Assembly (NCBI GenBank): GCA_964411255.1
Contig: CAYPKD010000003.1
Span: forward strand, 92,439 to 156,438
Reading direction: 5' to 3'
DNA length: 64,000 bases
Origin: an uncultured Gammaproteobacteria bacterium
Lineage (GTDB): Bacteria; Patescibacteriota; Patescibacteriia; UBA11705; DATKZF01
The first letter of the stretch is position 1; each line of letters starts with the position of its first letter. Positions 1,895-28,948 of the stretch are shown here, in pieces. The notes beneath the pieces are model-generated. The model searched no databases. It was not told the DNA's origin and was given only the letters and a program-made list of their open reading frames with translations. The position numbers were made by a program, and so were the translations under genes.

Positions 1895-1935
1895 CTAACG
1901 AAATCCACATTTTAAAAATTTTATCCACAAATGTT
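1895..1935. promoter_or_regulatory. oriC-region DnaA boxes upstream of dnaA
   Basis: A perfect TTATCCACA lies at 1921-1929 with a near-box AAATCCACA at 1901-1909, in the AT-rich intergenic between rpmH and dnaA. Confidence 0.5.
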
Positions 1936-2041: not shown

Positions 2042-3436
2042 ATGACACAAGATAACGAGCAACTCTGGCAAGCTGTGCTCGGTGAATTAGAGCTCAATTT
2101 AAGCAAAGCCAGCTTTACCACTTGGTTCAAAAATACTTTTATTATTGAAAATGAAGAGGGGCGTATTATTATTGGCGTCCCAAATACCTTTTCTCAGGCC
2201 TGGCTGAAACAAAAATACCACAATGACATTTCTAAAACTCTGCAGAATTTGACAGGACTAAGACTTAAAGAAATTTCCTATAAAGTCCAAAACAAAAAAG
2301 ATTTTAAACCAATTGAAAAAGAACCTGAACATAAAATTGAAATAAGTCAAACTGAAATTAAACAAAAAACAGCTGAGTCAAGCTATACGCAGCCGTCAAG
2401 CGAAGAACCACATCAAAACATAAACCCTAATTATGCTTTTGTCACCTTTATCGTTGGCAAAAACAATGAATTAGCTCAGGCTGCTTCTAAGGCAGTGGCT
2501 GAAAATCCAGGATTTACTTATAATCCTCTTTTTATTTATGGCGGAGTTGGTCTAGGAAAAACTCATCTTTTACAAGCAATTGGTAATGATATTGTTGAAA
2601 AAGACTCAAATAAAAAACTTCTCTATGTTACCTGCGAACAATTTACAAATGACTTTATCAATTCGATATCTGCCGGAAATACAGAAAAATTTCAAAAACA
2701 TTATCGTACCCCTGATGTACTGCTAATAGATGACATTCAATTTCTTACTGGAAAAGAAGGAACGCAGGAAGCTTTCTTTCATACCTTTAATGACCTGCAC
2801 CAAAGGAACAAACAAATTGTTATAACTTCAGACCGGCCTCCAAAAGCAATTGCTACATTAGAAGACAGGTTATTATCAAGATTTGAATGGGGAATGATAG
2901 CTGATATCTCACAGCCTGACCTAGAAACACGAGTAGCAATATTAGAAAAAAAATGTCAGGAGAAAAACTGCGAATTAGACAGGGACATAATCAACTACAT
3001 TACTCAAAACATTCAAAATAATGTCAGAGAATTAGAAGGGGCGCTAAATAAGATAATTGCCTATCATCAATTAAACAAAATTCCACCAACAATTGAGAAC
3101 GTAAAAAAAATAATATTTTCATTAAGCAATGCTGGTGGGCAAAAAGCTTCCATTACCCCTAAACATATGATCGAAACGGTCGGAAAGTTTTATGATATAA
3201 GCACAGATGACATAATTGGAAAATGCAGACAAAAAAGATTAGCTTTTCCAAGACAAATCATTATGTTTTTAATGAGAGAAGAAATGAGATCTTCTTATCC
3301 GTCAATTGGCCAAGAACTAGGAGGCAGAGACCATACAACCGCTATGCATGCCCATACAAAAATTTCAGACTTACTTGAAAATGATGAGAAGCTCAGGCAG
3401 GAAATAAACTTAATCAAGCAACTTTTATACCAATAA
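2042..3436 (+). CDS. dnaA: Chromosomal replication initiator protein DnaA
   Basis: 464 aa. N-terminal DnaA domain (WQAVLGELELNLSKASFTTWF), AAA+ Walker A GGVGLGKTHLLQAIGN, and a C-terminal DNA-binding domain. Confidence 0.95.
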   Translation: MTQDNEQLWQAVLGELELNLSKASFTTWFKNTFIIENEEGRIIIGVPNTFSQAWLKQKYHNDISKTLQNLTGLRLKEISYKVQNKKDFKPIEKEPEHKIEISQTEIKQKTAESSYTQPSSEEPHQNINPNYAFVTFIVGKNNELAQAASKAVAENPGFTYNPLFIYGGVGLGKTHLLQAIGNDIVEKDSNKKLLYVTCEQFTNDFINSISAGNTEKFQKHYRTPDVLLIDDIQFLTGKEGTQEAFFHTFNDLHQRNKQIVITSDRPPKAIATLEDRLLSRFEWGMIADISQPDLETRVAILEKKCQEKNCELDRDIINYITQNIQNNVRELEGALNKIIAYHQLNKIPPTIENVKKIIFSLSNAGGQKASITPKHMIETVGKFYDISTDDIIGKCRQKRLAFPRQIIMFLMREEMRSSYPSIGQELGGRDHTTAMHAHTKISDLLENDEKLRQEINLIKQLLYQ

Positions 3437-3559
3437 ACTGTTTATAGTCTTTGGACAAGTCTGTGTAGAAGATGTTCTTTAGTAAAACGATAAAAGTGGA
3501 AAACTTTTATGGCTAAAACTTATTAACTTTTCCTAAAAAAAAGCCACAGCTTAATACTC

Positions 3560-3650
3560 AATTATCCAACCACTTATTCACAACAATGACTTTAAAAATA
3601 ATCAATATAATTAAGATTAAATTAGTTTTACCACTCTATCCACAATATTA
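3560..3650. promoter_or_regulatory. DnaA-box cluster / probable DNA-unwinding part of oriC between dnaA and dnaN
   Basis: TTATCCAAC at 3562-3570 and CTATCCACA at 3636-3644 sit in a highly AT-rich spacer. Confidence 0.4.
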
Positions 3651-3699
3651 TTAATAAACTTATTATATATTTAAATATATTTTAAATTAATAATTAAAT

Positions 3700-9553: not shown

Positions 9554-9811
9554 ATGTCAGTCGAAATTCCATTATATAGTTTTTTAATAATATATCTGGT
9601 GTATATTGGAATTTTTTTGATTTTTAGTTTGTTTAATATTTATCACCTGGTCAAGCACGGTTTTTCCAGTGTTTTTGTTTATGTCGTAATAATTTTGTAC
9701 ATAGTTATCGCTGCAGTCGTAGTTTTTATAACATATTATTATCTGCAAGATGTAGAGTGGAGCCAGGTTTTATCATTGTTATCTGAAAAATATAAAAGTT
9801 TGGGATTTTAA
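9554..9811 (+). CDS. Small hydrophobic membrane protein
   Basis: 85 aa with two predicted TM helices. Confidence 0.4.
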   Translation: MSVEIPLYSFLIIYLVYIGIFLIFSLFNIYHLVKHGFSSVFVYVVIILYIVIAAVVVFITYYYLQDVEWSQVLSLLSEKYKSLGF

Positions 9812-9814
9812 CAT

Positions 9815-10438
9815 ATGTATACCATGACCCGTTTTCCTAATCAGCAGGAAGATGAAAATATATTAATTTTTTTACGCAGACATTGGATTGTTGTTTTCAA
9901 GTTTTTTATTTTATTTGTATTATTAGTTGTTTTTGTTTTAGTCCTGGATGTGGCAACTTATTATTTTACAAATATTTGGGAAGGCCAAATTAGTTATTCT
10001 CTTATTATTTTAGGAAACAGCGCGTATTTTCTGTTTGTTATGCTGTTTACTTTTGCCAACTTTGTAGATTATTATTTAGATGTCTGGATCGTGACGAATA
10101 AAAGAATTCTAAATATTGAGCAAAAAGGACTTTTTTCCAGGGTGGTCTCTGAAAAAGAAATAGTTCGAATGCAGGACGTCACTTCAGAGGTGCATGGATT
10201 TTTAGCCACATTTTTTAATTATGGAAATATATATATTCAAACTGCAGGAACAAAAGGAAGATTTATTTTTAAACAAGTGCCAGATGCTGCCAGTGTTGCT
10301 CAGGAAATTAGTAATTTGGTTACAAAGACACGAGAATCGCAACCCCAGCAAAAACCTGTATACACAGAGGAAAAAGAATCAGTGGTTTTAGAAAAAGAAA
10401 AAAAGCCCAGCGTTGAACAAATTGGGAAAGAAGAATAA
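9815..10438 (+). CDS. Membrane protein with bacterial PH-like (bPH_2/DUF304-like) domain
   Basis: 207 aa. ENILIFLRRHWIVVFKF plus two TM helices followed by a soluble domain, which is YdbS/YdbT-like architecture. Confidence 0.4.
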   Translation: MYTMTRFPNQQEDENILIFLRRHWIVVFKFFILFVLLVVFVLVLDVATYYFTNIWEGQISYSLIILGNSAYFLFVMLFTFANFVDYYLDVWIVTNKRILNIEQKGLFSRVVSEKEIVRMQDVTSEVHGFLATFFNYGNIYIQTAGTKGRFIFKQVPDAASVAQEISNLVTKTRESQPQQKPVYTEEKESVVLEKEKKPSVEQIGKEE

Positions 10439-10464
10439 ATTTATTTTTTATATTCAATGATAAT

Positions 10465-10489
10465 AAAAAACCGCTACGCGCGGTTTTTT
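10465..10489. terminator. Bidirectional intrinsic terminator between convergent genes
   Basis: aaaaaaccgc-tacgc-gcggtttttt. Confidence 0.6.
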
Positions 10490-10586
10490 GGATTTATTAA
10501 ATTTAATTGTAATTGTTATTTTGATGAAAAATTCTGGTGAAATCAAGGTAAATATGACTTGGAATTTTTAACTCCTTGTTTTGATA

Positions 10587-12260
10587 TTACCAGACTTTTT
10601 CTAAATTAATACCAGTATAATAATACTTTAGTATTTGATCATAAGATGCCCCGCCTTCGTCCTCATTCGCCCTATGATAGGCGTCAGTGGCATCAATACC
10701 CACTCCATGACCCCAGAGCTCTTTTCCTTCGTTGTATGGGCAGGGAACAGAAACTAAATATGGGACGTGATTATACCAAACTTCTTCAAAGCTTCTGGTG
10801 CGGCCATCGCTTCGAGAAAAATATGCGGCTACAATCGGCTTGCCATCATAAGTAGCGATAATACCGTTTGTTTGGTCCACTGCACCCTGCAGATCTCTCA
10901 TTATTTCTTGAGAGGCATAGCCTTTATATACCTGATCATAAGTAGCGTCAACATGAAAATATTCATGAGCATGTTTTGTGCCTTTGGAATAATGATAGTA
11001 AGCATATGTTCTGGCAGCAACTGTCATTGTTTTCAAATATTCAATTGGCGAACCATTGCTGGTTTCAGCAATGCCGCGCAAATAATTTTCCATGTAAATT
11101 TCTTCAATTAACCATGTTCTTTCCCTTGATTCATTATAGCGAACCTCTAAGTTACCTGAAAAATTATTCCAATTAATTGCAGGATTCCAAGTTGGACGAC
11201 GGTCATAATTTACTATTTCCCAGATTCCATTATTTGTATTTTTTAATTTTAAATAATAGGTATGATTTGTCGGCGTTCCTGCTCTTTTATATTGATAAGT
11301 AGATAATTCCTCAATATAGTCAACGGTAATCACTTCATTTGCTGGAACACTGATAAGTAAAGAATTGTTTGCATCTAAAAGTTGCCAGGATTTTGTATTT
11401 TTTATTTGAAAATTATCTTCAGAATGATATAAACCTACGCGAAGAAGTGGCCCGTTTGAATTTCTTTGCGGAATGCAATTAGTAGAACCTGAGACTGAAG
11501 AAGTATTATCAATATATGGACAAGAAGTGACAGTAGGGGGTGGAGTTGGTACAGGAGCTGGATTAGGCCTTGGTGTTGGTGTCGGCGCTGGTGTTGGTGC
11601 TGGTGCCGGAGTTGGTGTAGGTGCAGGCGCTGAAGACTTTTCAGGATCATCAGTTACTTCCATTGAAATTGAAACCTCACCGTTTTGAATCATTATATTG
11701 TCATCAGCTAAAACAAAATTTCCAGAATAAGTACCATAATTTGGCGGAGATTCTACAGCAAATTTAAATGTTGCTTCCTGGCCTGGCCAGACAACGTCTT
11801 GTTCCAGACTTCCAGGATGATATGGATCTGGCCAATAATCATGATGGAATTTTAGGCCAGTGCTTAATGATTTTAAGTATACTTTACCTTTATTCCATGC
11901 TTTTGTACCAGTATTTTTAAATTTAACAATAAAAGTAAAGCCTTTATTTGGAATAATATTGACATGTTTATGAGATTGAACTAAAAAAGCTGCCTGATTA
12001 TTATTTTCAGCAGCTAAAGCAACTGTAGTATGAAAAGGGTTTAATTGATTTTTTGTTTTTATTTGATTAAGAGAATTAATAACATTATCTTCAATAAATC
12101 TCATGCCAAAACTGCAAAGAGCCACAATAACAAAAGAAAGAAGCAGACTCATGGTAAAATGTGTTCCTTTTTTTGTTTTTGGAAGCTTATTTTCACAATT
12201 TTTTTTAGAATTTAAGGCATTATGAAAATAAGACAAATGATTTTTGTTTTGGTCTTGCAT
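10587..12260 (-). CDS. SpoIID/LytB-domain cell-wall protein with N-terminal membrane anchor and Pro/Thr/Ala-rich linker
   Basis: The C-terminal YLRGIAETSNGSPIEYLKTMTVAARTYAYYH matches the SpoIID/LytB amidase-enhancer domain. A PAPTPTPAPAPTPAPTPTP low-complexity linker is encoded around 11530-11640. The start codon is uncertain and may be an internal Met at the MSLLLSF anchor. Confidence 0.7.
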   Translation of the reverse strand: MQDQNKNHLSYFHNALNSKKNCENKLPKTKKGTHFTMSLLLSFVIVALCSFGMRFIEDNVINSLNQIKTKNQLNPFHTTVALAAENNNQAAFLVQSHKHVNIIPNKGFTFIVKFKNTGTKAWNKGKVYLKSLSTGLKFHHDYWPDPYHPGSLEQDVVWPGQEATFKFAVESPPNYGTYSGNFVLADDNIMIQNGEVSISMEVTDDPEKSSAPAPTPTPAPAPTPAPTPTPRPNPAPVPTPPPTVTSCPYIDNTSSVSGSTNCIPQRNSNGPLLRVGLYHSEDNFQIKNTKSWQLLDANNSLLISVPANEVITVDYIEELSTYQYKRAGTPTNHTYYLKLKNTNNGIWEIVNYDRRPTWNPAINWNNFSGNLEVRYNESRERTWLIEEIYMENYLRGIAETSNGSPIEYLKTMTVAARTYAYYHYSKGTKHAHEYFHVDATYDQVYKGYASQEIMRDLQGAVDQTNGIIATYDGKPIVAAYFSRSDGRTRSFEEVWYNHVPYLVSVPCPYNEGKELWGHGVGIDATDAYHRANEDEGGASYDQILKYYYTGINLEKVW

Positions 12261-13284: not shown

Positions 13285-13533
13285 TTAATGACTAGATTTA
13301 ACCAGATTTTCTTTTTCAATTTTCGTTAAACGTTTTATTTGCGCTTCTCTTTTCTGTGCTTCTGATCGGCTGTTAAATTTTTCAAAATAAACAATTTTTA
13401 CAGGTCTTCTATATTTTGTATATTTAGCTCCTTCGCCTTTATTATGCTTTTCTTCTCTAGCTTTAATATTTATACAAGATCCTGTGTATAACGAATTGTC
13501 ATTACATCGGGCAATGTATGTGAAGTATTTCAT
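13285..13533 (-). CDS. GIY-YIG nuclease superfamily protein (UPF0213/YhbQ-like)
   Basis: 82 aa. YIARCNDNSLYTGSCINIKAREEKHNKGEGAKYTKYRRPVKIVYFEKFNSRSEAQKRE matches the small GIY-YIG domain pattern. Confidence 0.75.
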   Translation of the reverse strand: MKYFTYIARCNDNSLYTGSCINIKAREEKHNKGEGAKYTKYRRPVKIVYFEKFNSRSEAQKREAQIKRLTKIEKENLVKSSH

Positions 13534-13614
13534 TTTAATATATAAAAGATTTAATTAATTTGTATCACTATTTATGGCTGTGCTATTCGAAGTTCGCCAA
13601 AGGCGAACGAAGAA

Positions 13615-13690
13615 TGGTGGACCTGACTGGACTTGAACCAGCGACCTCCTCCATGCCATGGAGGCGCTCTACCAACTAAGCTACAGGCCC
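13615..13690 (-). tRNA. tRNA-Ala(GGC) with G3:U70 identity pair
   Basis: Hand fold: GGGCCTG acceptor with G3-T70, anticodon loop ATGGCAT, T-arm GTCGC-TGGTTCAAGTCC region, discriminator A, CCA. Confidence 0.8.
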
Positions 13691-25133: not shown

Positions 25134-26267
25134 TTATTTAAATTTTAATTGTTTAGATTTTTTAGACCTGGTTTCAAACCAGGCAGCAAACATAGCAGTC
25201 AGCGGTATCGCTCCGATTAAGCCGATGCTACCGGCAATTGACCGAATAATTTCTTCAGCCATAAATTCAAAATTGAATATTTTCAGATAGCTTTCTCCAA
25301 AACTGGAAAATAATAACAGCAAGCCAAGTGAAGCGCCAACATAGGCATATATAAGCGTATTGCTCATTGTGCCAATAATATCTTTTCCAATTCGCACGCC
25401 AGATTTAAATAATTCCTTTGAATTTAGTTTTGGATTAGCCTTTTTTATTTCATTGATCGAAGATGAAATGGACATAGCAACATCCATTACTGCGCCGATT
25501 GCGCCAATCATAATTGCTGAATAAAATAAGCCGTTAAAATTGAGATTTGGAAATTTTGCAAAGAGCGTTCTGGTTTCTTCATGGCCAAATCCGGTTAAAA
25601 TGGTCATTTTTCCGAAAATTAATGCCAAAATAACTGAGACAATAAGGCCGAAAATCGTTCCTAATATTGAGGATGCAGCCTTTTTATTCCAGCCACTGAT
25701 TAACAGAAATGTTATTACAGTAATAACACTGCAAAATATAATTGTCAAAAAAATCGGACTTGTTCCTTTTAATATTCCAGGAAGTAGGAATTTTAATATA
25801 AATAATATTCCTAAAAGTAAACTGATAACAGTTTTTAAACCCTGAAAGCCTCCAAAAATTATTAACAAGGCAAAAAATATTAAAATTATTACAATGATTT
25901 TTCCCAGTCGATAATAATCATGCACATAATGATTGATCGTTCCATCTGACATTTGTTCAACGTAAAGTACGATCTTGTCTCCTTGTTCTAAATCCATCGC
26001 ATATGGATTGTTTTCAATTGTGTTTGTTAAAGAAACGGTTTGATTTTTAAATTCACCGCTTAATATTTTTACTTTTAATTCCTGTAATACACTTTCATCT
26101 TCAAGTTGAACTTGATGAATAGCTAAAATTTCAGCTTTTTCATAATGAGATTCAGAAATTGTTTTTGGCTCAATATTTTCAGCTTCAGCAGTGATTTCCA
26201 TATCCTGTGCAAAAGCTGGCTGTGATGCAAGCAAAAATAAAAAAAATATAAATAAAAGTTTTTTCAT
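25134..26267 (-). CDS. YibE/F-like polytopic membrane protein
   Basis: 377 aa with a signal peptide, an extracytoplasmic N-domain and multiple TM helices. Family assignment is from overall architecture only. Confidence 0.45.
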   Translation of the reverse strand: MKKLLFIFFLFLLASQPAFAQDMEITAEAENIEPKTISESHYEKAEILAIHQVQLEDESVLQELKVKILSGEFKNQTVSLTNTIENNPYAMDLEQGDKIVLYVEQMSDGTINHYVHDYYRLGKIIVIILIFFALLIIFGGFQGLKTVISLLLGILFILKFLLPGILKGTSPIFLTIIFCSVITVITFLLISGWNKKAASSILGTIFGLIVSVILALIFGKMTILTGFGHEETRTLFAKFPNLNFNGLFYSAIMIGAIGAVMDVAMSISSSINEIKKANPKLNSKELFKSGVRIGKDIIGTMSNTLIYAYVGASLGLLLLFSSFGESYLKIFNFEFMAEEIIRSIAGSIGLIGAIPLTAMFAAWFETRSKKSKQLKFK

Positions 26268-26734
26268 ATTTTACCTTTGAAAGGTTCTTTTAAAAGTAAA
26301 ATAGCCACTCCGATTACAATCCAGACATCAGCTAGATTAAAAACTGCAAGTTGATAATCAAATATGTTAAGTGAAATAAAATCAATAACACCGTCATGAA
26401 TAATCCTGTCAAAAAGATTTGAAATGGCACCAACAATAATTATAAAATACGCTATAATCTGGATGCTATTATCTTTCTTTATTGCCCTATATAAAAGATA
26501 TATTAATATTATAATGATCAAAGCAACAATGGCAAAAATAATATATTGCGGCATAGATATGCTAAACGCCAGGTTTTGGTTTTTTATTAATTGCAAGGAA
26601 AAAACAAAATTATTTTGTTCAATTAAAAAAACACCTTCTTGCGGAATTTTTGTTAGTACTAGAAATTTTATTGTTTGATCAATGGCAAGTAATAAAATTG
26701 GAATTATATATGCCAAGATTTTTTTGCCAGGCAT
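26264..26734 (-). CDS. lspA: Lipoprotein signal peptidase II
   Basis: AISNLFDRIIHDGVIDFISL and AVFNLADVWIVIG motifs. The start was moved to the internal MPGKK, 4 nt after the upstream gene's stop. Confidence 0.8.
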   Translation of the reverse strand: MPGKKILAYIIPILLLAIDQTIKFLVLTKIPQEGVFLIEQNNFVFSLQLIKNQNLAFSISMPQYIIFAIVALIIIILIYLLYRAIKKDNSIQIIAYFIIIVGAISNLFDRIIHDGVIDFISLNIFDYQLAVFNLADVWIVIGVAILLLKEPFKGKI

Positions 26735-26738
26735 TTTA

Positions 26739-27107
26739 TTAAAGAGATTTAAGTTTTGTTTTACAGGTGATGCAGGCACTTGATGTTGGGCGAGCTAACA
26801 ATCTGTCCCCATTTATTGGCTGCTTGCAATATTTACACGTGCCATAAATTCCTTTTTTTATTCTATCTAGAGCCTTATTAACATCACGTAATTCCTTTTC
26901 TAAAGTAGCTTCTAAAGTCAAATTCACATCAAAAGTAGCCACCTCATTCGTATTTTCCGTTTCATCATCACCATAATTTGGAAAATCAGACTTGTAATCA
27001 GATGGATCTTTTTTGCTTGGATGTGCAAATTTAGCTAATTCTTTTTCTAAATTAGCTTTTTCCTCGAGTAATTTTTCCTTTATTTGATTTTGTATGTCTT
27101 TTTTCAT
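26739..27107 (-). CDS. DksA/TraR-family C4 zinc-finger protein
   Basis: 122 aa with a coiled-coil N-terminus and C-terminal CKYCKQPI...CITCK. Confidence 0.7.
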   Translation of the reverse strand: MKKDIQNQIKEKLLEEKANLEKELAKFAHPSKKDPSDYKSDFPNYGDDETENTNEVATFDVNLTLEATLEKELRDVNKALDRIKKGIYGTCKYCKQPINGDRLLARPTSSACITCKTKLKSL

Positions 27108-27171
27108 AAAGCCTTATTATATATAGTTTACCTATTAATGGTGTTTTTTGCAATATAGCACATTTTTTTTA

Positions 27172-27475
27172 AAAATACAAAGGGGCACTACTACGACCCA
27201 ATTGTTTAAAAGTGGCCTGTGTGCCCCTAGAAGTAAAGGAGATTACGCTACTTCCATTTCGATTTGGAGAATCGAGCTGGAAGACAAAGCGATTTCCTGA
27301 TTTTGCGCTCGACTCGCGATCCAGTCCCCGTTTCCTAGGTGTTGCCTTAGGCGCAAGGTCACCGTTCATTTTGTTTTTGTTTTTGTTTCATTACAGGAGT
27401 CCTGTCGAGGCGGGGCTCGCTGTATAAGAAAACAGGATGACTGGAGTTTTCCTAGGTTAGAAAAACTCAGTGAGG
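27172..27475 (-). ncRNA. Candidate structured non-coding RNA or long leader of the dksA-like/lspA operon (class unknown), ending in an intrinsic terminator
   Basis: About 48% GC over roughly 300 nt in an AT-rich genome. No convincing ORF: frames lack SD and read through the terminator hairpin ggggcac..gtgcccc (27183-27227), which is followed by tttgtattttt on the minus strand. Class-specific motifs for tmRNA, RNase P, SRP RNA and T-box were not found by eye. Confidence 0.3.
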
Positions 27476-27689
27476 AAATATAGTTGTTTACTATAAAGAA
27501 CTGTAAAGAACAACAAATTTATTCAATGGTTTTCCTTTTGATAGATAGAATGTGATCTACCTACTTATATTATATCAAGACCATTTTTTTGCGTCAATGT
27601 CCAATTTTTATTTATTAAAAAAAATGGCTCATTTTAGCCAAATATATGCGCGATAATTACAAATTTAAATATAAAAATAATGAATTTTC

Positions 27690-27726
27690 TGTGGATAACC
27701 TATATAAAAGTGGGTACTTATCCACA
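27690..27726. promoter_or_regulatory. Inverted pair of perfect DnaA boxes (TGTGGATAA ... TTATCCACA) flanking a TATATAAAA element
   Basis: 27690-27698 is the reverse complement of TTATCCACA. 27718-27726 is TTATCCACA. A 19-bp spacer contains tatataaaa. An 18-bp near-palindrome gtacacactagtgtatac follows at 27733-27750. Confidence 0.5.
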
Positions 27727-27739
27727 GCGAAAGTACACA

Positions 27740-28948
27740 CTAGTGTATACAAATCGCTATTCTGTCTGTTGATCTATTGATTAGAATATTTTCGAAAATG
27801 AATCGTGATGGGTCATTAATGTAAATGATATTATTTTGGCCATTTTTGTTTAGTGTTGTCAAGCCACATTTTTCATATTTGATTTGATCTGAAAAAGATA
27901 GTGTATGATCAATATTTGATAATTGGATAAAATTTTGATCATAAAGCCTTAAATAATATTTTTCATTTTGGTGGGAAATTGAAAGGCTACCATTTTCATT
28001 TTCTTGCCAATTATATACTGTCCTGTCAGCAATTATTTGAGTTGAGATTGAACCATCTACCAGCCGTTTTGTCTGCTTTTTGGGGTATTTGTAAGCTAAA
28101 TGATCAATTATGCTATTTTTTATTGTATTTTCTGCTGTTTTTGGCGCTAAAACCAGCCAATTATCTTCATCATTTATCAATAAATCAATACAGGTATTAG
28201 TATTTGCTAGAAAGGGAATTTTTGTGAGATTATTGTTGCTTGTTGATAAATTGTTAATATAATACTGATAATTTGAAAAATCAGGAATTTGTATATTATT
28301 TTTACAATTATTTGGGTTTTTTAGCTGTTTTGCGCTTAATTTCGTAAAATCATTTTCAATTTGTATTTTCCAAAAGGTCTCTTCATCAAGAATCAGCATA
28401 TTTTCATTAAAATATGGCAGATCAGAATAATCTTTAATATAAATGTTTGCCTTTGAAAAATCAAAGCGTTTTTTTGTTCTATATGTATGATTGTTTGATA
28501 ATGGCTGATTTTCATCAATTACTGTCTTTACTATACTCACATTTTCTGTTGATTCAATTGCATAGCTATTATATTTCAATGATTTTGAGAAAATATTAAA
28601 ATCTGTTGGTTTGAAAATAAAAATCCATTGCTTTTCCGCCTGAATAATTGCGAATTCTGAAGAATTCATCAATTTTTCCTTAAAATTATCAGGAAAATTT
28701 TTATTTTCTGATGCAGATTCAATTATTTTGTCTAGGTTAGCACTTTCTTGTTGAAAAATTTTCTTTATTTTCCAATGGCTATATACATTTACATCTTCAT
28801 TAACAAAATCATCAATTGAATCAAAATGATAATTGAATAAAAAGAGGATAAAAAGAAAAATTCCTCCTAAAATCATAAGTAAAAATATAAGCAGAGGAAT
28901 TTTTCTTCTTTGGTGAGTTGCGTTATCTTTTATATTTAGCTCGATCAT
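27740..28948 (-). CDS. Hypothetical membrane-anchored protein (Asn-rich)
   Basis: 402 aa with an N-terminal TM helix. Its start overlaps the pnp stop by 26 nt. Confidence 0.45.
   Translation of the reverse strand: MIELNIKDNATHQRRKIPLLIFLLMILGGIFLFILFLFNYHFDSIDDFVNEDVNVYSHWKIKKIFQQESANLDKIIESASENKNFPDNFKEKLMNSSEFAIIQAEKQWIFIFKPTDFNIFSKSLKYNSYAIESTENVSIVKTVIDENQPLSNNHTYRTKKRFDFSKANIYIKDYSDLPYFNENMLILDEETFWKIQIENDFTKLSAKQLKNPNNCKNNIQIPDFSNYQYYINNLSTSNNNLTKIPFLANTNTCIDLLINDEDNWLVLAPKTAENTIKNSIIDHLAYKYPKKQTKRLVDGSISTQIIADRTVYNWQENENGSLSISHQNEKYYLRLYDQNFIQLSNIDHTLSFSDQIKYEKCGLTTLNKNGQNNIIYINDPSRFIFENILINRSTDRIAICIH

Follow-up and report, generated by a model that had tools for sequence, protein, structure and literature searches.

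Only in a few model bacteria, all of them cultivated, have DnaA boxes away from the replication origin been recognised as operators of promoters and as loci that buffer DnaA. The cores of the Escherichia coli sites DARS1 and DARS2 consist of a few closely adjacent boxes that include an oppositely oriented pair. The stable DnaA-binding clusters of Bacillus subtilis contain four to eight boxes and have an A value above 0.3 (Ishikawa et al. 2007, PMC2533591); they are formed by TTATCCACA boxes outside the origin, generally close to oriC and conserved across species, and several are located at regulated promoters. The DnaA-regulated promoters of B. subtilis (sda, ywlC, yydA and dnaA) and E. coli (dnaA and nrdAB) have perfect or near-perfect 9-mers clustered in the intergenic promoter region and conserved among relatives, including an autoregulatory box at dnaA itself (PMC2533591). 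The E. coli locus for hydrolysis of DnaA-ATP, datA, is downstream of the glyVXY tRNA operon (PMC10950094). In Caulobacter, the non-coding RNA gene ccnA, which is linked to cell-cycle control, is located inside the origin and contains weak DnaA boxes; its activator is reported to be CtrA (PMC8959179).

The 64-kb stretch of DNA analysed here (the window) belongs to an uncultivated Patescibacteria clade and contains an inverted pair of DnaA boxes upstream of a predicted RNA gene:

27690 to 27698, minus strand: partner DnaA box, a perfect 9-mer (TGTGGATAA on the plus strand, TTATCCACA on the minus strand), promoter-proximal and inverted relative to the anchor box
27699 to 27717, no strand: 19-bp spacer, cctatataaaagtgggtac
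27718 to 27726, minus strand: anchor DnaA box, a perfect 9-mer (TTATCCACA on the plus strand, TGTGGATAA on the RNA-sense minus strand), promoter-distal
27617 to 27640, minus strand: intrinsic terminator (TGGCT-aaaatg-AGCCA and then T8) that ends the upstream operon, found by terminator scan between the boxes and the RNA promoter
27569 to 27597, minus strand: predicted promoter of the RNA gene, of the sigma-70 type (TTGACG and TG-n-TATAAT, 17 bp apart), matching the consensus at 11 of 12 positions and in the TG
27171 to 27563, minus strand: predicted non-coding RNA, conserved and structured, about 390 nt long and equipped with a terminator

A sequence-only reading of the window had reported two perfect inverted boxes with a 19-bp spacer (TGTGGATAA at 27690-27698 and TTATCCACA at 27718-27726), which the sequence confirms; the inverted repeat extends to 10 bp (CTGTGGATAA/TTATCCACAG). 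With the DARS cores the site shares its small size and its oppositely oriented boxes, but these are 19 bp apart and there is no third core box in this genome. Its resemblance to the B. subtilis clusters does not extend to box number or density: there are two boxes here and the A value is 0.02, whereas a stable cluster is defined by an A value above 0.3 with four or more boxes (PMC2533591). The A values of the related sites range from approximately 0.01 to 0.46, and L001 alone (0.46) exceeds 0.3. Compared with the DnaA-regulated promoters, the boxes are likewise perfect or near-perfect, intergenic and conserved among relatives, and dnaA has a box of its own, but the target is a non-coding RNA gene rather than a protein operon, and the anchor box is approximately 110-140 bp upstream of the -35 element in conserved phase rather than beside or over the promoter. 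As at datA (PMC10950094), an origin-proximal box site adjoins a stable-RNA unit and is exposed to read-through and a terminator; in contrast, datA is downstream of its RNA genes and needs an IHF site and more boxes, whereas the site described here is upstream of an RNA promoter and downstream of a protein operon. The association of a non-coding RNA gene with DnaA boxes recalls ccnA, except that the boxes here are perfect, precede the promoter and are separated from the origin by about 24 kb. A literature search found no paper on non-origin DnaA boxes in bacteria of the Candidate Phyla Radiation; nor did it find one on a non-coding RNA gene under DnaA control.

DnaA boxes were defined by the 9-bp consensus TTATCCACA and its relaxed form TTATNCACA. 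Both boxes of the pair are perfect by this definition, and the homologous sites of relatives are perfect, variant at the N position or mismatched at one position. The window contains three perfect boxes, compared to 0.74 expected from shuffled sequences; two of them are the pair, 28 bp apart, and the third, at 1921, is just upstream of dnaA. When the window and 13 related loci (215 kb) were surveyed together, 14 of 15 perfect boxes were found within 120 bp upstream of the -35 element of the RNA gene, in zones that make up 0.78% of the bases (binomial P of about 5e-29, a value inflated by shared ancestry), and the fifteenth was the box of the dnaA promoter. The DnaA protein of this genome, aligned to 1J1V, retains the equivalents of R399, P423, D433, H434, T435 and H439 from the published list of base-contacting residues of domain IV (PMC2533591).

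The closer relatives were obtained by a search with the DksA protein, scans of genome and metagenome contigs with PNPase having reached only 53-62% identity; the wider clade compared is the Patescibacteria, with MAGs resembling Falkowbacteria and Buchananbacteria. In six related lineages, whose DksA proteins are 58-87% identical, both 9-mers are intact apart from a single change at the N position in L169, and the spacer is 19 bp long in all six but essentially unconstrained in sequence (for example, GTGCCTGTTTATTTACTGG, CATGGGCTTTAGACACCAC and GGTGGGTTATTGCCACCAC). A perfect partner box is found at exactly N19 in L161/L162, L163/L164, L165, L167 and L169, and as TTATTCACA at N20 in L001. The anchor box has the same orientation in L001-L008, L081, L083, L085, L161-L165 and L167; variants are TGTGCATAA in L169, TGGGGATAA in L084 and a two-mismatch version in L100. 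The bases that flank the anchor box diverge, including the tenth base beside the 9-mer. In the wider clade the anchor box persists and the partner is replaced by secondary boxes that turn over around it, often as a direct repeat 2 bp away, an arrangement also known from oriC arrays; examples are L003 (TGTGGATAA-ta-TGTGGATTA), L004 (-gt-TGTTGATAT) and L081 (-gt-TGTTAATAA). Altogether, the RNA promoter is preceded by boxes in about 18 related lineages, irrespective of which genes flank it. The arms of the inverted repeat never covary and a single arm persists in the wider clade, indicating that selection acts on the 9-mer sequence and not on a hairpin; judging from these alignments, the box pair is under strong selection. 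Both the rarity of the 9-mer (3 in 64 kb, 15 in 215 kb) and its conservation therefore favour the initial observation. The element TATATAAAA (tatataaaa) that had been singled out between the boxes fared otherwise: it lies in a spacer of conserved length and unconserved sequence, is not conserved among relatives, and was rejected as a promoter element.

The RNA, which corresponds to the GC-rich RNA candidate of the sequence-only reading, is predicted to fold with a minimum free energy z-score of -4.3, and compensatory changes are seen in its helices: they affect 8 of the 15 pairs of the 5′ hairpin and, in a subfamily alignment, 11 of 31. The single-stranded sequence CAAAAACAAAAAC at 27373-27385 is invariant. 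No complementarity of CAAAAACAAAAAC to the dnaA leader was seen. Reverse matches to CAAAAACAAAAAC with one mismatch are located at 9671 and 9929. Searches of the window and of the GC-richer homologues in L006 and L085 against Rfam 15 gave no family for the RNA, whether the cutoff was the gathering threshold or E<=10; ARAGORN found no tRNA or tmRNA at the locus; and inspection by eye found no signatures of RNase P, tmRNA (including permuted forms), SRP RNA or 6S RNA. An orf of 66 aa within the RNA (27369-27169) was rejected, as it lacks conservation. Matches to the RNA by nhmmer are confined to loci with boxes; L100 retains the RNA with degenerate boxes only, so the link between RNA and boxes is not absolute. 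The promoter region from approximately -45 to +20 is almost invariant in close relatives, and TTGAC-N17-TAnnnT was found in nearly all related loci. In this genome no box with one mismatch or fewer overlaps the RNA promoter; in L005, L006 and L008 an extra TTATNCACA box lies shortly downstream of the -10 element, over the predicted start, and in L002, L083 and L085 boxes are found at -46 to -16.

The genes on either side of this unit are as follows:

27740 to 28948, minus strand: ORF402, a membrane-anchored orf of 402 aa, the upstream neighbour and last gene of the pnp operon
27733 to 27750, minus strand: near-palindrome, GTACACACTAGTGTATAC on the plus strand and GTATACACTAGTGTGTAC on the minus strand, symmetrical at 16 of 18 positions and covering the TAG stop codon of ORF402 (27740-27742)
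26739 to 27107, minus strand: dksA, a DksA/TraR-type zinc-finger gene, the downstream neighbour, outside the unit
26264 to 26779: lspA, which follows dksA (Pfam matches of the dksA-lspA pair: PF01258 and PF01252)

ORF402 has no Pfam or NCBIfam match; homologues of 398-403 aa are found in L161-L165, L167 and L169, and elsewhere the gene upstream of the RNA is cmk-like or a different orf. The near-palindrome is present as the sequence-only reading described it, beside the stop codon of the upstream gene. Its left half is coding (C-I-H-stop), and it is kept in relatives with an ORF402 homologue and absent where another gene stands upstream; a change on both sides preserves the symmetry in L165 (GTATAGACTAGTCTAGAC), while L167 and L169 break it, so that the palindrome is only partly conserved. 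The stem of the terminator covaries in relatives (GGCTAATTTTAGCC, TTGCTAATTTTAGCAA), and analogous terminators occupy the same place in L004, L006, L081 and L100. Because the terminator is between the boxes and the promoter, the boxes are formally in the 3′ untranslated region of the upstream operon. Downstream of the RNA the gene may be dksA, fur with rubrerythrin (L167), rnhB (L005, L006) or another (L008). Control of dksA-lspA by the boxes, as first proposed, did not hold up: the boxes stay with the RNA when other genes follow, dksA has a conserved extended -10 element of its own (TGTGCTATATT, approximately 27162-27152), and where dksA occurs in another context (L166, L168) it is without boxes.

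In the window, the anchor box starts 129 bp upstream of the -35 element of the RNA gene, and the predicted transcription start (approximately 27563) and the GC-rich part of the RNA follow the pair at distances of 128-164 nt and roughly 210-250 nt, respectively, the latter close to the 220 nt given by the sequence-only reading. The distance from the anchor box to the -35 element is 109-112 bp in six lineages, in which the intervening DNA is 29% identical, no better than random; in other lineages it is 61, 80, 102, 102, 122, 130, 131 and 141 bp, with differences of approximately whole helical turns. A scan of periods for these distances peaks at 10.0-10.1 bp (R = 0.88, p = 3.5e-4, n = 8), and when the modal phase is taken as reference in a V-test, p is 5.6e-4 for a period of 10.0 and 0.011 for 10.5; the phasing statistics cover 14 lineages, the promoters of L008, L084 and L100 were placed by eye, and the period was scanned. 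By these measures, the position of the putative operator relative to the promoter is constrained.

The explanation that fits best, with about an even chance of being correct, is that the pair is a high-affinity DnaA operator in the upstream control region of the gene for the 390-nt RNA. DnaA would bind the anchor and partner boxes as a unit of fixed geometry, and the resulting complex, positioned approximately 110-140 bp upstream and on one particular helical face, would modulate the strong TTGACG-17-TATAAT promoter by bending or looping of DNA or by oligomerisation of DnaA in the direction of weaker boxes close to the promoter. Output of the RNA would thereby track how much DnaA is present or which nucleotide state it is in, i.e. 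the replication cycle, and the arrangement suggests that RNA synthesis is tied to the replication state of the cell. Binding of DnaA to the pair and an effect of DnaA on the promoter are inferred; as to the direction of that effect, repression or modulation is favoured, because the promoter is near-consensus and some relatives have extra boxes over the start site. Several points speak against an operator: with its centre approximately 130-160 bp upstream of the start, the site is more remote than is usual for classical activation or repression, a terminator intervenes between boxes and promoter, and boxes with at most one mismatch are absent from the promoter itself in this genome. Of the original proposal of a DnaA site, what stands is that selected boxes exist outside oriC, with control of the RNA as the best fit; the TATATAAAA element, dksA-lspA and titration do not.

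The main alternative, though an unlikely one, is that the site controls DnaA itself and thereby the timing of initiation, as do datA, the DARS sites and the B. subtilis clusters, and is not a promoter operator. A high-affinity site near the origin would act by titration of DnaA or by stimulating the hydrolysis or exchange of the nucleotide bound to it, and the strong RNA promoter nearby and read-through from the pnp operon would modulate its occupancy by supercoiling or displacement. The location of the site relative to the following features bears on this alternative:

1921 to 1929, plus strand: DnaA box of the dnaA promoter region, a perfect box upstream of a TG-n-TATAAT and the only other perfect box in the window
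2042 to 3436: dnaA
3700 to 4830: dnaN

An equivalent of the box at 1921 (TTATCCACA or TTATACACA) is found 110-140 nt before the dnaA start codon ATG in four relatives, which shows the canonical box to be in use in the clade. Before dnaN there are weaker boxes, at 3574 and 3636, and four relatives share this pattern; the spacer between dnaA and dnaN, in which weak boxes are followed by an AT-only stretch of 55 bp as in typical origins, is conserved. A breakpoint fit of GC and GC3 skew places the strand switch between dnaA and dnaN (3-4 kb), and finds none near 27-28 kb, where GC3 skew is positive on both sides; a window of 64 kb makes this a weak test. The pair is thus about 24 kb from the likely origin at dnaA/dnaN, in agreement with the description of the boxes as far from oriC. 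Control of DnaA itself would be consistent with the site being the best DnaA site in every genome region sampled, since the dnaA/dnaN regions of this genome and four relatives have zero or one perfect box plus weak boxes, and with its proximity to dnaA within a record. The two are 24 kb apart in this genome and 22.7 and 29.3 kb apart in two relatives; in a complete chromosome of 1.0 Mb the site is on the opposite side of dnaA, at 15-17 kb, but the distance is 126 kb in the genome of L004. Boxes in a transcribed 3′ untranslated region ahead of a terminator resemble datA downstream of glyVXY, at which DnaA binding interacts with read-through (PMC10950094), and L001 attains the B. subtilis cluster density, but the two boxes here (one to four elsewhere) with an A value of 0.02 do not, and a titration cluster by that definition (PMC2533591) was rejected. 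A pure sink would have no need of constant spacing and phasing relative to a particular promoter, or of being linked to one RNA gene exclusively. The 19-bp separation of the inverted pair also differs from the close adjacency of DARS core boxes.

A more elaborate form of the operator hypothesis, and a doubtful one, is that the pair and the RNA constitute a clade-specific cell-cycle module in which DnaA directly gates transcription of a structured regulatory RNA, the invariant single-stranded CAAAAACAAAAAC of which acts on another component; the RNA could then feed back on replication initiation or couple initiation to growth.

It is improbable that DnaA, by binding directly behind the stop codon with which the upstream operon ends, serves as a roadblock or insulator that helps a weak terminator (5-bp stem) to halt transcription of the pnp operon before it reaches the RNA promoter. 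The boxes do begin 6-26 nt after the stop codon of whatever gene is upstream, several loci have a terminator between boxes and promoter, and DnaA binding within datA helps to attenuate read-through there (PMC10950094). Such a function would leave unexplained the helical phasing to the -35 element and the need for a replication initiator; moreover, box orientation and number vary, and no clear terminator was seen in the interval in L001, L003, L007 or L085.

Still less probable is a site that does not involve DnaA, either an RNA hairpin for stability or processing in the 3′ untranslated region of ORF402 or the operator of another dimeric regulator. The transcript can form a stem of 9-10 bp with a 19-nt loop beside the small hairpin of the near-palindrome (fold z = -2.1), and a constant loop length suits a structured element, but the arms are invariant without compensatory change while the loop is free to vary, and the wider clade keeps one arm with direct-repeat partners instead; the hairpin was rejected on these grounds. 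An inverted repeat with N19 is atypical of the operators of dimeric helix-turn-helix proteins. The conserved unit is exactly the 9-bp DnaA consensus, with a variable tenth base, and the promoter of dnaA bears the same 9-mer.

Finally, a true or second replication origin at the pair is hardly credible and was rejected on GC3 skew within the 64-kb window and on box orientation, for although these two strongest boxes of the window adjoin AT-rich DNA (27600-27690) and oriC is tens of kb from dnaA in some bacteria such as E. coli, the skew fit and the conserved weak boxes and AT-only stretch point to the dnaA-dnaN spacer, the anchor box points away from the AT-rich interval, no DnaA-trio-like repeats follow the partner box, and the interval contains a terminator and a promoter.

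The case presented here, which rests purely on comparative genomics, concerns uncultivated Patescibacteria with genomes of about 1 Mb and few regulators. The site is unusual in that its partner is an unannotated, conserved, structured RNA, in that it is the strongest DnaA site in each genome region sampled, above the origin region, and in that the predicted operator stays at a set distance from the promoter and on the same helical face although the intervening DNA mutates freely. If the pair and the RNA did form a cell-cycle module, no earlier case of a non-coding RNA under DnaA control would be known, and this one would come from bacteria whose regulatory repertoires are minimal. The predicted DnaA operator offers a testable link between replication initiation and an RNA without an assigned function, and the approximately 18 homologues of the RNA are available for structural and functional work.

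The two perfect DnaA boxes claimed by the sequence-only reading are present on the plus strand as TGTGGATAA (27690-27698) and TTATCCACA (27718-27726), 19 bp apart, and their inverted repeat is 10 bp in full. Perfect TTATCCACA occurs three times in the 64 kb (both strands counted) against 0.74 expected, the third copy being at 1921, just upstream of the TG-n-TATAAT that precedes dnaA. A near-palindrome noticed at 27733-27750 was likewise confirmed; it covers the TAG stop of a minus-strand 402-aa orf. The genes around the site are all on the minus strand.

Features of the DnaA-box locus in order of transcription
31130-28923, minus strand: pnp
28948-27740, minus strand: ORF402, a membrane-anchored, family-less protein of 402 aa
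Over the stop codon of ORF402: palindrome
27726-27718, minus strand: box 1 (anchor), reading TGTGGATAA, then the 19-bp spacer
27698-27690, minus strand: box 2 (partner), reading TTATCCACA, then ~50 bp of AT-rich DNA
27640-27625 and then T8, minus strand: intrinsic terminator, between the boxes and the RNA promoter
27597-27569, minus strand: near-consensus RNA promoter TTGACG-17-TG-n-TATAAT
~27563-27171, minus strand: GC-richer transcript of ~390 nt, terminating in its own stem and U-run
27107-26739, minus strand: dksA/TraR-type gene, followed by lspA and a YibE/F gene

By PNPase (53-62% identity), the closest relatives are metagenome-assembled genomes that carry the label Patescibacteria or Buchananbacteria, in some cases wrongly. 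By DksA and DnaA, the closest are Falkowbacteria- and Kuenenbacteria-like, and Falkowbacteria belong in the NCBI taxonomy to the Patescibacteria/Parcubacteria group. Among related loci (numbered L001 onward, slash pairs being one lineage each), the conserved unit of the site is exactly the 9-bp consensus, and the neighbouring tenth base varies. The DnaA of this genome, aligned to 1J1V, keeps the equivalents of all six E. coli domain IV base-contacting residues (as listed in PMC2533591). A hairpin reading of the inverted repeat is disfavoured because its arms never covary.

An origin of replication at the 27.7-kb site is unlikely. The window begins with a canonical origin neighbourhood, in which a tentative yidC, yidD, rnpA and rpmH adjoin dnaA-dnaN, and the likely control regions are two.

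1745-2041: likely oriC/dnaA control region
3437-3699: likely oriC/dnaA control region

The 9-mer of the boxes recurs in the promoter region of dnaA, both in this genome and in relatives, and weak boxes at 3574 (TTATTCACA) and 3636 (CTATCCACA) precede an AT-only stretch of 55 bp, after which comes dnaN. The origin-region boxes are weaker than the 27.7-kb site, a pattern repeated in four relatives (L170, L173, L174, L177). When per-gene GC and GC3 skew were regressed on transcription direction and a step function, the preferred breakpoint fell at 3-4 kb, between dnaA and dnaN, and no switch was seen near 27.7 kb, the test being weak with one gene left of the breakpoint. At the site itself, the anchor points away from the AT-rich side, and the AT-rich interval holds the terminator and promoter. 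From 10587 to 31755 (~21 kb), to the right of plus-strand dnaA/dnaN, nearly all genes are on the minus strand; if the origin is at dnaA/dnaN, replication meets the transcription of pnp, the RNA and dksA head-on. The relation to dnaA is the same in two close relatives and, mirrored, in L001; in L004 the genes are co-directional with replication.

In the closer tier of relatives (DksA 58-87% identical), both boxes are perfect as TGTGGATAA-N19-TTATCCACA in L161/L162, L163/L164, L165 and L167, and the pair in L169 is TGTGCATAA-N19-TTATCCACA. The spacer is constant at 19 bp in length and free in sequence, so the tatataaaa element to which attention had been drawn is not conserved; the flanks have also diverged. 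The RNA promoter hardly varies between about -45 and +20, the terminator stem covaries, and among the closest relatives the RNA aligns well, with 78% mean column identity over the whole aligned interval. The palindrome is kept only in relatives with ORF402; a paired C-to-G and G-to-C change preserves its symmetry in L165 (3341-3358), and two lineages (L167, L169) break it. In the mRNA the palindrome may form a small 3' stem, or it may be a protein-binding site.

In the wider tier (PNPase 52-62% identical), L001-L008, L081, L083 and L085 each carry, downstream of pnp, exactly one perfect TGTGGATAA whose orientation is conserved and beside which are one to three further boxes that differ between lineages. 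Several of these are direct repeats 2 bp from the anchor, as in L003 (TGTGGATAA-ta-TGTGGATTA), L004 (-gt-TGTTGATAT) and L081 (-gt-TGTTAATAA); L001 has an inverted partner, TTATTCACA, at N20. The anchor of L084 has one mismatch and is accompanied by two boxes in opposite orientation, and L100 has degenerate boxes only. In 215 kb (the window and 13 loci), 14 of the 15 perfect boxes lie within 120 bp upstream of an RNA promoter, zones that make up 0.78% of the bases (binomial P ~5e-29; shared ancestry inflates this enrichment, which is very large all the same); the fifteenth is at the dnaA promoter.

The genes on either side of this unit change. Upstream of the boxes, close relatives have a homologue of ORF402, L005 and L006 have a cmk-like gene, and the remaining loci have other orfs. 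Downstream of the RNA, most loci have dksA, L005 and L006 have rnhB, L008 has a different gene, and L167 has fur and rubrerythrin placed ahead of dksA. Where dksA is found in another context (L166, L168), neither boxes nor RNA adjoin it. It has its own conserved extended -10, TGTGCTATATT (~27162-27152), and separate dksA promoters are predicted in L001, L003, L004, L081 and L083. An nhmmer profile finds RNA homologues only in box-bearing loci (L008 is marginal, and the boxes of L100 have decayed). By these comparisons, the constant partner of the boxes is the predicted non-coding transcript. In the Falkowbacteria contig L168, where the RNA is missing next to dksA, a perfect TGTGGATAA (3303-3311) within the 3' part of the 607-aa orf immediately preceding dksA could be a remnant or have arisen by chance.

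This RNA family of ~320-460 nt, with a conserved structure and its own strong promoter and terminator, may be a more important object of the locus than the boxes. Three homologues had no match in Rfam 15 at E<=10, and there was no tRNA or tmRNA call. The fold z is -4.3; the 5' hairpin has compensatory changes in 8 of its 15 pairs, and a subfamily alignment has them in 11 of 31. Homologues, at the following loci among others, share the covarying 5' hairpin, TTCTCTACT, an invariant single-stranded CAAAAACAAAAAC and CCAA..GGTAGAG.

L001:10619-10986: RNA homologue
L004:10807-11161: RNA homologue
L007:4857-5271: RNA homologue
L085:4782-5206: RNA homologue
L163:3549-3933: RNA homologue
L167:2211-2674: RNA homologue

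Matches to CAAAAACAAAAAC number five in the window against 1.2 expected. Two plus-strand reverse complements with one mismatch, GTTTTTGTTTATG (9671-9683) and GTTTTTGTTTTAG (9929-9941), fall just before and inside a family-less orf (9815-10438), which may reflect chance or a pairing target. Long, orf-free GC-rich stretches, in L006 after the RNA (10290-10760) and in L169 directly after pnp (470-1130), are possible further RNAs that lack annotation. Throughout L006, every Rfam family stayed below its gathering score, and for the L006 stretch nothing significant matched at E<=5. An Rfam HPnc0260 match in the window (13524-13653, plus strand; 60.5 bits, gathering score 59) overlaps an opposite-strand tRNA-Ala (13615-13690) and is probably an artefact of antisense-to-tRNA similarity.

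Anchor and -35 are 109-112 bp apart, start to start, in L002, L003, L004/L081, L007/L085, L083 and L167, and the intervening sequence is 29% identical in an ungapped comparison, the random level. In the remaining lineages the distances (61, 80, 102, 102, 122, 130, 131 and 141 bp) differ from ~110 by near-whole helical turns. For these eight, a period scan of 5-25 bp peaked at 10.0-10.1 bp (R = 0.88, p = 3.5e-4) and a V-test for the modal-class phase gave p = 5.6e-4 (period 10.0) or 0.011 (10.5), statistics from a small sample with three promoters placed by eye and the period scanned.

The best-supported reading is that the site may serve as a DnaA operator for the RNA promoter. Such an operator would be defined by a high-affinity anchor whose partner keeps a fixed spacing, and by its conserved distance from the promoter and conserved helical face towards it. 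We lean towards repression or modulation as the predicted effect, because the RNA promoter is near-consensus and the boxes of some relatives lie over the start site or adjoin the -35. Equally possible would be an in-phase upstream activator, by analogy with Fis sites at rRNA promoters.

As the main rival, the site would be a DnaA-homeostasis site like datA or DARS that exploits neighbouring transcription (PMC10950094). Measured where dnaA and the site share a record, its position is origin-proximal: 24 kb from dnaA in this genome, and 22.7 kb and 29.3 kb away in two relatives. In the complete 1.0-Mb chromosome OZ246408.1 it lies 15-17 kb from dnaA on the opposite side, and in the genome of L004 the distance is 126 kb. 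In B. subtilis, the eight regions that stably bind DnaA are separated from others by four successive boxes with affinity/mean spacing >0.3 (Ishikawa et al. 2007, PMC2533591). The site in the window falls short at 0.02 because it has two boxes only; scores in relatives range from ~0.01 to 0.46, L001 alone exceeding the threshold. A homeostasis site and an operator of the RNA promoter are not mutually exclusive.

The literature searched contained no report of non-origin DnaA boxes in the Candidate Phyla Radiation, nor of a non-coding RNA gene under DnaA control. The nearest case is Caulobacter ccnA, a non-coding RNA gene that lies within the origin, contains weak DnaA boxes and is controlled by CtrA (PMC8959179). 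DnaA operators outside oriC are known; what would be new in the predicted operator of this RNA is the type of target, the geometry and the clade.
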